Shown here piece after piece: positions 18,851 through 20,166 of a stretch of 47,009 bases of DNA. The stretch is from a virus. The stretch's first letter is position 1. Each line of letters starts with the position of its first letter. Made by a program: the position numbers and the translations under genes. Under the pieces are notes generated by a model. That model did not search any database. It was not told the DNA's origin and was given only the letters and a program-made list of their open reading frames with translations. The stretch lies in the IMG/VR virus record IMGVR_UViG_2554235482_000003, positions 1 through 47,009 of that record; one strand, written 5' to 3'.

Positions 18851-19867
18851 TCAGACCAATTCGTGATACAGCGATTCAGAATCAAATCGTCGGTACGGAG
18901 TGTTACCAACAGTCTCGTTCAGACGATTGAGTGCGTGGTTTATTTCATCTGGTGTTGGTAGCACCCTCTCCTCAGACAGTTTTGATAGAATCCCGCCTAA
19001 TGCCCCAGAGACGATTGCCGTAGCGTAGCTTGACCCTCTCTCTATTCCTGCCGCTCCAGTCGGTCGCTCGTAGGCCAAATGATCTGGTGCAAACACGTCT
19101 GGCTCTCCTAACCGAAAGTCAACACTCTGGTCAGATATACGCTCTTTTCGGTATGTGTCACAAGTGTGCCCCGGTGCACAATTCCGCCGCGAACAGAAAG
19201 TCTGATTTACGGGTTCGCCAGGGTGTTCGTTCGCAGTCTCGCGTATCCAATACGCACCGGGTGGAAAGATTTCTGGTGTTTGTCTGTATCTGCTGCGTGA
19301 ATTAGATACACTGCATGTACACACCGCTTCAAAGGATCCAACTGAGATAGTATGGTCCGAGAGTGCTGGGCAGTACATTGTTTTTTCTTGCCCATGAAGA
19401 TCATTCCCAGCACCTGCGACGATGATAGTCCCGGAATCGGCTACCTCTTGAGCAGCTTGGCACATACGACATTGCTGTTGACAGTCGGCGTGATGCACCC
19501 CAGCGGAGATGTTCGCAATATCAACACTACCATCTCGGATTTCTGCCATCGCTTTGAGACAATTGCTTGGCTTTATGTCACCGGAGTCAATCACGATTCG
19601 GTGCAGGTCATAAATTGCGTCAGGGGCGTACCAGCTAATGGCTCCCAGAACATTGGCTCCGTGGGGGGTCGTGAATGGATCGTCACTAGCTATGTAATTC
19701 TGCTGTTTTCCGGTTGTAAGTTCAGAATCATCTAGGAAGCTGACATCTAAAATCGAATCAACTACTGCAATCGTGATTGTTTCGCCTGCGCCAAACTTCT
19801 CGGAGTAGTTGATATCAGTCGCTTGGACTCTTCTGATTTCTTCTCTAAGCTGACTTACAGACTGCAA
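18851..19867 (-). CDS. Subtilisin-like S8 serine protease catalytic domain; frame stays open upstream past 19891
   Basis: IAVVDS (Asp), TPHGANV (His), AGAGND (oxyanion Asn), GSSYAT (Ser); no ATG start, no signal peptide. Confidence 0.85.
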   Translation of the reverse strand: MQSVSQLREEIRRVQATDINYSEKFGAGETITIAVVDSILDVSFLDDSELTTGKQQNYIASDDPFTTPHGANVLGAISWYAPDAIYDLHRIVIDSGDIKPSNCLKAMAEIRDGSVDIANISAGVHHADCQQQCRMCQAAQEVADSGTIIVAGAGNDLHGQEKTMYCPALSDHTISVGSFEAVCTCSVSNSRSRYRQTPEIFPPGAYWIRETANEHPGEPVNQTFCSRRNCAPGHTCDTYRKERISDQSVDFRLGEPDVFAPDHLAYERPTGAAGIERGSSYATAIVSGALGGILSKLSEERVLPTPDEINHALNRLNETVGNTPYRRFDSESLYHELV

Positions 19868-19881
19868 CCGTGCAGGATAAT

Positions 19882-20166
19882 TCAGTTTCCCGCGAGAACT
19901 TCCATACCACTATCGAGTTCTACGCTCTCGATGCCCGGAATGTCACACACTCGATCAACGCTTGTCTCCGGGAGTGTGGCTTGAAGGCTGTTGAACGGGA
20001 GTTCTTCAATGGAAGTAGCCCCCGCCTCGTGAACTTGTTCTTTCACGTCAGCCATAGCTCCATCTGCGACGCCGAGAACCAACGTCACAGTACTTCCAGA
20101 GGTAGCATCGTCTCTTAGATGCGCCACCTCCTTCTGGATGTATGGAGCCATCGTTACATTTGACAT
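19882..20166 (-). CDS. I9-like protease prodomain/inhibitor (94 aa)
   Basis: Beta-alpha-beta-beta-alpha-beta pattern ending LCDIPGIESVELD-like (VCDIPGIESVELDSGMEVL); directly upstream of S8. Confidence 0.65.
   Translation of the reverse strand: MSNVTMAPYIQKEVAHLRDDATSGSTVTLVLGVADGAMADVKEQVHEAGATSIEELPFNSLQATLPETSVDRVCDIPGIESVELDSGMEVLAGN
19885..19891 (-). other. Predicted -1 ribosomal frameshift site G_GGA_AAC (I9 to S8)
   Basis: Heptamer immediately before UGA; -1 frame is the S8 frame; CTGCA-CGGT-TGCAG hairpin 9 nt downstream. Confidence 0.65.

Follow-up and report, generated by a model that had tools for sequence, protein, structure and literature searches.

The propeptide of a subtilisin serves both as a folding chaperone and as an inhibitor, and can act in trans. 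Pro-Tk-subtilisin and the bacterial pro-subtilisins are single in-frame secreted pre-pro-enzymes that run in the order propeptide, linker and S8 (subtilisin-family) domain, whereas the intracellular serine proteases (ISPs) of Bacillus (PDB 7xr8, 4zoq, 7y6m) are cytoplasmic S8 enzymes in which a short N-terminal extension acts as the inhibitor instead of an I9-like domain. A different route to two products with a common N-terminus is the -1 ribosomal frameshift of the tail chaperone genes G/GT, for which the slip site in lambda is G_GGA_AAG. Among haloviruses, the shift site of the HCTV-1 g-t pair is G_GGA_AAC, a heptamer that is also among the most shift-prone on mammalian ribosomes (Atkins et al. 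2016, PMC5009743), and that of Hardycor1 is G_GGA_AAT (PMC7911831). The sole experimentally proven archaeal -1 frameshift is that of fucA1, with halovirus tail genes and Mg-chelatase as predicted cases, in a 2021 review that mentions no protease (PMC8211752). A protease cassette of a salt-loving archaeon is described here from the virus record IMGVR_UViG_2554235482_000003 of IMG/VR, of which positions 1 to 47,009 were analysed (47,009 nucleotides, hereafter the window); comparison of its sequence with homologs makes it very probable that a G_GGA_AAC heptamer directs a -1 frameshift giving a fusion of a prodomain-like protein with an S8 protease.

All parts of the cassette lie on the minus strand. 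The first open reading frame (ORF1, 19882 to 20151) encodes 89 residues from the ATG at 20151 and ends ...EVLAGN before a TGA. The initial annotation had described a 94-residue frame ending gcG GGA AAC TGA, which is indeed seen at 20166 to 19882 (3' end gtt ctc gcG GGA AAC TGA) when read from the alternative ATG at 20166; since all homologs start M-x-x-Y, ATG 20151 is probably the true start. The heptamer occupies 19885 to 19891 in the phase of ORF1, with GGA as Gly88 and AAC as Asn89, and the zero-frame stop TGA (19882 to 19884) stands directly 3' of it. The S8 frame is open from 19909 to its stop at 18853-18851, overlapping ORF1 by 28 nucleotides (nt), and its codons GGG (19891-19889), AAA (19888-19886) and CTG (19885-19883) lie exactly in -1 relative to ORF1, so that the stop-free run from the junction into the protease, as first described, holds over 19909 to 18851. 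This run consists of a trans-frame linker (LNYPARLQSVSQLREE...; 19760 to 19885), coding in the -1 frame only and comprising the 42 codons between the slip and the catalytic Asp, followed by the S8 catalytic domain with its stop (18851 to 19759). The protease was also correctly said to have no ATG of its own: none precedes the catalytic Asp, the first lying 332 nt past the ORF1 stop, and the sole canonical start ahead of that residue in the window is a TTG at 19865 to 19867. The string GGGAAAC is not in itself rare, with four matches in the window against 5.1 expected; the significance of the heptamer lies in its phase, position and conservation, not in mere occurrence.

The protease is rare, falling into six clusters among 5.8 billion proteins, and most of the called starts in these clusters lie downstream of the catalytic Asp, which implies that gene callers were unable to find a proper start. 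On the contigs of all six clusters, the upstream gene encodes 89 residues and is labelled PF26036 Peptidase_inhib_put; this small ORF ends x-G-N-stop on G GGA AAC T(G/A)A, the S8 gene follows in -1, and the conceptual -1 translation of these close homologs is conserved from the heptamer onward. With the set enlarged through samples of 401 Halobacteria genomes, a plasmid search and further loci, an in-phase G_GGA_AAC with S8 in -1 was found in 22 lineages (the window, L001, L005-L007, L009, L011, L013-L021, L034, L047, L064, L069, L074 and L076), which represent no fewer than eight groups at family level and include metagenomes and two plasmids (pHTUR02 of Haloterrigena turkmenica and one from Halomontanus rarus), with S8 identity down to ~30%. 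Retention of GGGAAAC with the protease in -1 had been named beforehand as a test of the proposed slip, and it is these 22 lineages that lend the slip its comparative support. In 11 of them the zero-frame stop (TGA or TAA) directly follows the heptamer; one has it 3 nt further on, and the remaining 10 have it 27-30 nt downstream. A pattern-based scan of genome contigs returned one locus only, a scan of viral contigs one distant pair and one fragment, and a phage collection no match.

Constraint at the junction exceeds what the encoded residues require. The junction alignment and the frame and start-codon tables cover the first 18 lineages; in an alignment of these anchored on the heptamer, no string other than GGGAAAC is invariant from -30 to +45. 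Within the close family, ORF1 has 19 columns that combine an invariant residue with a degenerate codon, of which 17 vary at the third base, and the two that do not are the GGA and AAC of the heptamer. Seven different residues (E, A, S, Q, T, R or P) are encoded by the codon before the heptamer, whose last base is nevertheless always G. Background usage in these genes is 23% GGA among Gly codons, 56% AAC among Asn codons and 23% G at third positions, giving a chance of ~0.03 per lineage of finding xxG GGA AAC where x-G-N is encoded, and synonymous sites among the lineages are saturated (proportion of synonymous differences, pS, 0.5-1.0).

Coding beyond the heptamer follows the -1 frame. Over the 43 codons past it, this frame alone is stop-free in 18/18 lineages, with stops in both other frames in 18/18, and the ratio of nonsynonymous to synonymous differences (pN/pS) in the linker is lowest in the -1 frame in every pair compared, at 0.27-0.86 versus 0.7-2.5, mostly near or above 1, for the other two. 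The distance from the heptamer to the catalytic Asp is 43-45 codons in every one of the 18 lineages; ATG, GTG and TTG are all absent from this interval in 13 of them, and start-like codons make up 0.8% of linker codons versus 2.8% in the rest of S8. In L013 (Halovenus halobia), a -1-frame TGA stands directly before GGG and a zero-frame TAA directly after AAC, so that a frame change yielding the complete protease is possible only on the heptamer itself. The predicted junction ...EVLAGN-LNYPARLQS... matches the product of tandem slippage.

One alternative is a pair of ordinary genes, in which the S8 protein would start by itself (from TTG 19867 in the window and from non-canonical codons in other loci), would be co-transcribed with a prodomain or inhibitor acting in trans, and the heptamer would be kept for a functional C-terminal Gly-Asn. 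Such an arrangement would draw on the established capacity of subtilisin propeptides to act in trans, on the position of TTG 19867 upstream of the catalytic Asp and on one clade of relatives whose junction does carry a start codon and whose two genes are so arranged. The TTG is not conserved, however, its equivalent being TTT or TTC (Phe) in the nearest relatives L005 and L006, and with 13 of the 18 lineages devoid of a canonical start, the independent initiation at 19867 that the initial annotation had held against its own proposal appears improbable. Purifying selection on the linker in the -1 frame acts right from the heptamer, and a constraint on residues offers no explanation for the fixed third bases, nor for the fixed G that precedes the heptamer across seven different residues; moreover, an in-frame fusion among the relatives (P0052, below) does without Gly-Asn. 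Two ordinary genes are accordingly regarded as very unlikely. The CTG that follows the heptamer was also considered as a non-canonical start and rejected, because L011 and L013 have CTA instead and the second group lacks the codon.

Several variant loci act as natural controls. Six members that have lost the heptamer group together with strong support (100/99) in a maximum-likelihood tree of S8 sequences and have a GTG located at the ORF1 stop, overlapping it or a few nt away; from its sequence this clade reads as an ordinary coupled two-gene operon. Outside it the heptamer type extends throughout the tree, across path lengths of several substitutions per site, and does not follow host taxonomy. 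At locus L062, a single 449-residue ORF (P0052) carries both PF26036 and PF00082 and is collinear with the predicted trans-frame product while lacking Gly-Asn, which indicates that the fusion is a real architecture and that Gly-Asn is dispensable for the protein. A sub-branch of S8-linked loci has no GGGAAAC with the protease still in -1: in L025 (the same as L053), the junction at ~1495-1504 reads GAC CCA AAT TTT CGC, containing in-phase C_CCA_AAT and A_AAT_TTT, and in L026, near 1420-1432, GAT TTT CGC replaces GGGAAAC. The junction of this sub-branch is possibly a second type of slip site, judged from its sequence. TTT-CGN has been proposed as a +1 motif in the HF1 group of haloviruses (PMC7230728). 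Many proteins of the ORF1 family end ...[DN]F[RQ]S....

On the frameshift reading, ribosomes translating ORF1 would have tRNA-Gly paired with GGA and tRNA-Asn with AAC on arrival at G_GGA_AAC; most would continue to the adjoining TGA and release a free 89-residue protein of propeptide fold, and a fraction would slip one base back, re-pairing on GGG and AAA. The slipped ribosomes would read on in the -1 frame through the 42-codon linker and the intact S8 domain, generating a cytoplasmic pro-enzyme of ~433 residues with the junction ...EVLAGN-LNYPAR...; the fusion had been predicted at ~438 residues, a length corrected here for the probable start at ATG 20151. If ORF1 behaves as subtilisin propeptides do, the N-terminal domain common to both products would serve to fold and inhibit the protease, with the free copy as extra inhibitor in trans, and it is plausible by this analogy that the majority of ribosomes would yield free inhibitor. 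We infer the slip efficiency, the product ratio, autoprocessing and inhibition, as well as any role in the cell for this horizontally mobile module. The mechanism would be canonical tandem slippage into the -1 frame.

Recoding might also take place by another route, with the P-site tRNA-Asn slipping from AAC to AAA at a slowly decoded stop, with a slip before accommodation of Asn-tRNA (giving ...AGK-L...) or with realignment during transcription. A stop directly after the heptamer in half of the lineages, the window included, and the failure to find an RNA stimulator would suit such routes, but the 10 lineages with the stop 27-30 nt away keep the full heptamer including G_GG, which tandem slippage alone needs, and transcriptional slippage is rejected, given that GGGAAAC has none of the long homopolymer run known to be needed for it; these routes are likewise regarded as very unlikely. 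A broken gene, in which a recent indel, pseudogenisation or an assembly error has split an in-frame pro-subtilisin gene, would fit the in-frame relative P0052 and the RefSeq annotation of such loci as separate, truncated or unlisted genes, but is dismissed as exceedingly improbable: 22 independent assemblies and metagenomes share the break at this heptamer, on which grounds sequencing error and pseudogene status are rejected, and the catalytic residues are intact, with purifying selection on both parts.

The identity of ORF1 as a prodomain was approached by family and by predicted fold. It is placed in PF26036 provisionally, through 45-71% identity to six homologs with the precomputed label Peptidase_inhib_put; neither ORF1 nor three homologs gave any Pfam match at E <= 1, Pfam I9 (PF05922) included, in a Pfam copy that was without the PF26036 model and in which the PF26036-labelled homologs were likewise matchless, and a PDB sequence search with ORF1 gave 0 matches at E <= 10. 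The AlphaFold2 model (predicted local distance difference test, pLDDT, 75) shows a helix followed by b-a-b-b-a-b, and in VIA-align the top 12 chains are all the propeptide of Tk-subtilisin from Thermococcus (Z 8.7-9.4, root-mean-square deviation (rmsd) 1.5-1.9 A over ~60 of 60-65 residues), the best with Z 9.4 and rmsd 1.5 over 59/60 residues; the prodomain of CspB (Z 8.2) and the prosegments of subtilisins BPN' and E (Z 7.4-7.8) come next. An ORF1-type protein is always followed by S8 in the 30/30 S8-linked loci, and this constant partner together with the modelled propeptide-like fold supports a role as prodomain or inhibitor. The initial label 'I9-like' thus describes the predicted fold and does not extend to the sequence.

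A wider family of ORF1 paralogs is mostly stand-alone, with acidic ...D-G-A-G-E-D-V... tails and no adjoining S8 gene; stand-alone paralogs occur in 119/401 genomes of the order (for example G000:C6:137762-137995; L036-L061) and in 17/17 sampled genomes of the genus of the window. The family name 'peptidase inhibitor' may possibly be unfit for these stand-alone members.

The S8 part matches PF00082 above the cut-off (1.1e-14), and its nearest solved sequences are CylA, subtilisin BPN' and intracellular serine proteases (E ~1e-10). On the minus strand, the catalytic codons lie at 19759-19757 (Asp), 19663-19661 (His) and 19030-19028 (Ser), with the oxyanion Asn in AGAGN; D45, H77, N163 and S288 are invariant in the S8 alignment, leaving the triad order D-H-S and the oxyanion Asn intact. 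As noted at the outset, no signal peptide is evident by inspection. Eight Cys residues are invariant in the close S8 family (C137, C141, C144, C174, C191, C233, C238 and C244; alignment A4), forming C-x3-C-x2-C and C-x4-C-x5-C clusters as inserts in the subtilisin fold, and the distant fusion P0052 retains seven of them; their pattern suggests metal sites in a cytoplasmic enzyme. The AlphaFold2 model of S8, built on a 7-sequence alignment (pLDDT 38), is too poor to place the cysteine clusters.

What the comparative data show is the slip site, the frame relation, the -1 coding of the linker, the lack of a canonical start ahead of the catalytic Asp in 13 of the 18 lineages tabulated and the predicted propeptide-like fold. 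Against the frameshift reading it must be counted that its support is comparative throughout and that the lineages are related, with the consequence that their counts overstate independence and that a product of chances over all 22 would overstate the case. The window copy itself has TTG 19867, from which a full catalytic domain could start. L028 (G073:C8; oriented 1058-1067) has the heptamer and TGA with S8 in +1, on a very long branch, and is probably a copy in decay that carries a secondary indel. For the prodomain part, ORF1 has no sequence match to Pfam I9, and unrelated ferredoxin-like folds score close to the best propeptide match (NapD, Z 8.5 versus 9.4), a small margin by which the fold alone is not decisive.

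A further adverse point is that the search for downstream RNA structure turned up none that is conserved or thermodynamically significant. The initial annotation had pointed to a hairpin starting 9 nt after the heptamer, and this hairpin is present (19862 to 19875; CTGCA at 19875-19871, loop CGGT, TGCAG at 19866-19862; 5 base pairs), but it is probably no conserved stimulator: the local fold in the window is no better than shuffles (z = -1.2), and homologs carry different small hairpins 4-11 nt after the heptamer. Folds of 45, 70 and 100 nt computed per sequence gave z = -1.8 to +2.3 with nothing significant, RNAalifold on two groups of 9 sequences found no consensus helix and no covariation, and an Rfam search matched only the neighbouring repeats of a clustered regularly interspaced short palindromic repeat (CRISPR) array. 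Slip efficiency could thus be low. To our knowledge, stimulatory elements are not obligatory for -1 frameshifting, as the G/GT example illustrates.

Of the systems introduced above, the tail chaperone G/GT is alike in that its short ORF has a GGGAAAN-type X_XXY_YYZ heptamer close to the 3' end and in that two products share an N-terminus, as predicted for the cassette; G/GT has no obligatory RNA stimulator, and none was found here. It is unlike in what is made and where: the cassette would yield a prodomain alone and a prodomain-protease fusion rather than chaperones, and it resides on chromosomes, on plasmids and in provirus cargo rather than in a tail operon. The provirus of the window has its own tail-chaperone pair, whose 166-residue G-like ORF (29266-29766, minus strand) contains an in-phase gaG GGA AAC (29308-29302) eleven codons ahead of its stop, with a -1 frame that runs to ~29093, just short of the next large gene (ATG 29089). 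From its sequence this appears a typical G/GT arrangement that shares its heptamer with the protease cassette, supporting the idea that G_GGA_AAC is usable by ribosomes of this host range, the haloarchaeal cases being known from sequence only.

The alpha-L-fucosidase fucA1 of Sulfolobus (Saccharolobus) solfataricus is likewise a cellular archaeal enzyme that reaches full length through a -1 slip on a heptamer; it is, however, a split gene in one organism, whereas the site of the cassette is conserved across many families, and in fucA1 only the fusion has a known function, whereas the zero-frame product of the cassette is a predicted folded domain that is likely functional. With pro-Tk-subtilisin and the bacterial pro-subtilisins, the cassette shares the order of propeptide, linker and S8 domain, the superposition of the ORF1 model on the Tk-propeptide and an intact triad, yet here the propeptide is a separate ORF that would be joined by recoding, a signal peptide (by inspection) and an I9 sequence match are missing, and the S8 domain has cysteine-rich inserts. 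The ISPs resemble the cassette protease as cytoplasmic enzymes among its nearest solved sequences and differ in their short inhibitory extension and in having no recoding. A literature search found no report of frameshifting in an archaeal subtilisin or subtilase and nothing relevant on PF26036. In the PLSDB gene table of pHTUR02 (L063, NC_013745.1), ORF1 is a 'hypothetical protein' and S8 is unlisted; in the Halomontanus rarus plasmid (L064, NZ_CP135524.1), the S8 gene is made to begin at an internal ATG, with ORF1 unlisted; neither of these two inspected RefSeq records bears a frameshift mark.

The cassette is sporadic, occurring in 17/401 sampled genomes and in 0/21 other genomes of the genus of the window; in the window it lies in low-GC cargo beside a CRISPR array and a TnpB-like gene; the sporadic spread and the low-GC cargo setting fit horizontal mobility. 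The CRISPR array (20342-21898) has ~24 repeats of 30 nt, reading GTTTCAGACGAACCCTTGTGGGGTTGAAGC on the minus strand, and is matched by Rfam CRISPR-DR24 just below gathering. Its degenerate terminal repeat lies ~190 nt upstream of ORF1 on the same strand, so that transcripts reading through the array could extend into the protease cassette; no cas genes turned up among the scanned neighbours. Divergent from the leader side of the array, a 390-residue ORF (22491-23663, plus strand) has a Cas12f1-like TNB domain (TnpB-like). The convergent neighbours of the cassette (17890-18777, plus strand) encode an HVO_A0114-family protein (PF25212) and a YdjM-like membrane protein (PF04307), with a 715-residue ResIII/XPB-type helicase further upstream (14470-16617).

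The suggestion of a toxin-antitoxin or abortive-infection device found no backing, as PADLOC gave no match for ORF1 or the S8 protein and no conserved third (partner) gene was present across 24 loci. Another idea is that the frameshift is a stoichiometry device that would keep free prodomain-inhibitor in large excess over a latent cytoplasmic protease, and that the mobile cassette (provirus cargo, plasmids and virus-like contigs) would be a conflict module (defence, anti-defence or addiction), the protease being unleashed when translation or inhibitor turnover is disturbed, for instance by infection; this remains a speculative and rather doubtful proposal.

If the frameshift is real, it would be among the very few recoding events known in Archaea, and the cassette would add a deeply conserved case with a canonical heptamer in an enzyme family that is both cellular and carried by mobile elements. 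Natural controls are at hand in the start-codon clade, the in-frame fusion and the alternative heptamer, and since the carriers are related to genetically tractable haloarchaea, the efficiency and determinants of archaeal frameshifting would be directly testable. For the protease family, the arrangement would represent an unusual way of encoding a pro-protease, in which the prodomain is made both alone and fused.

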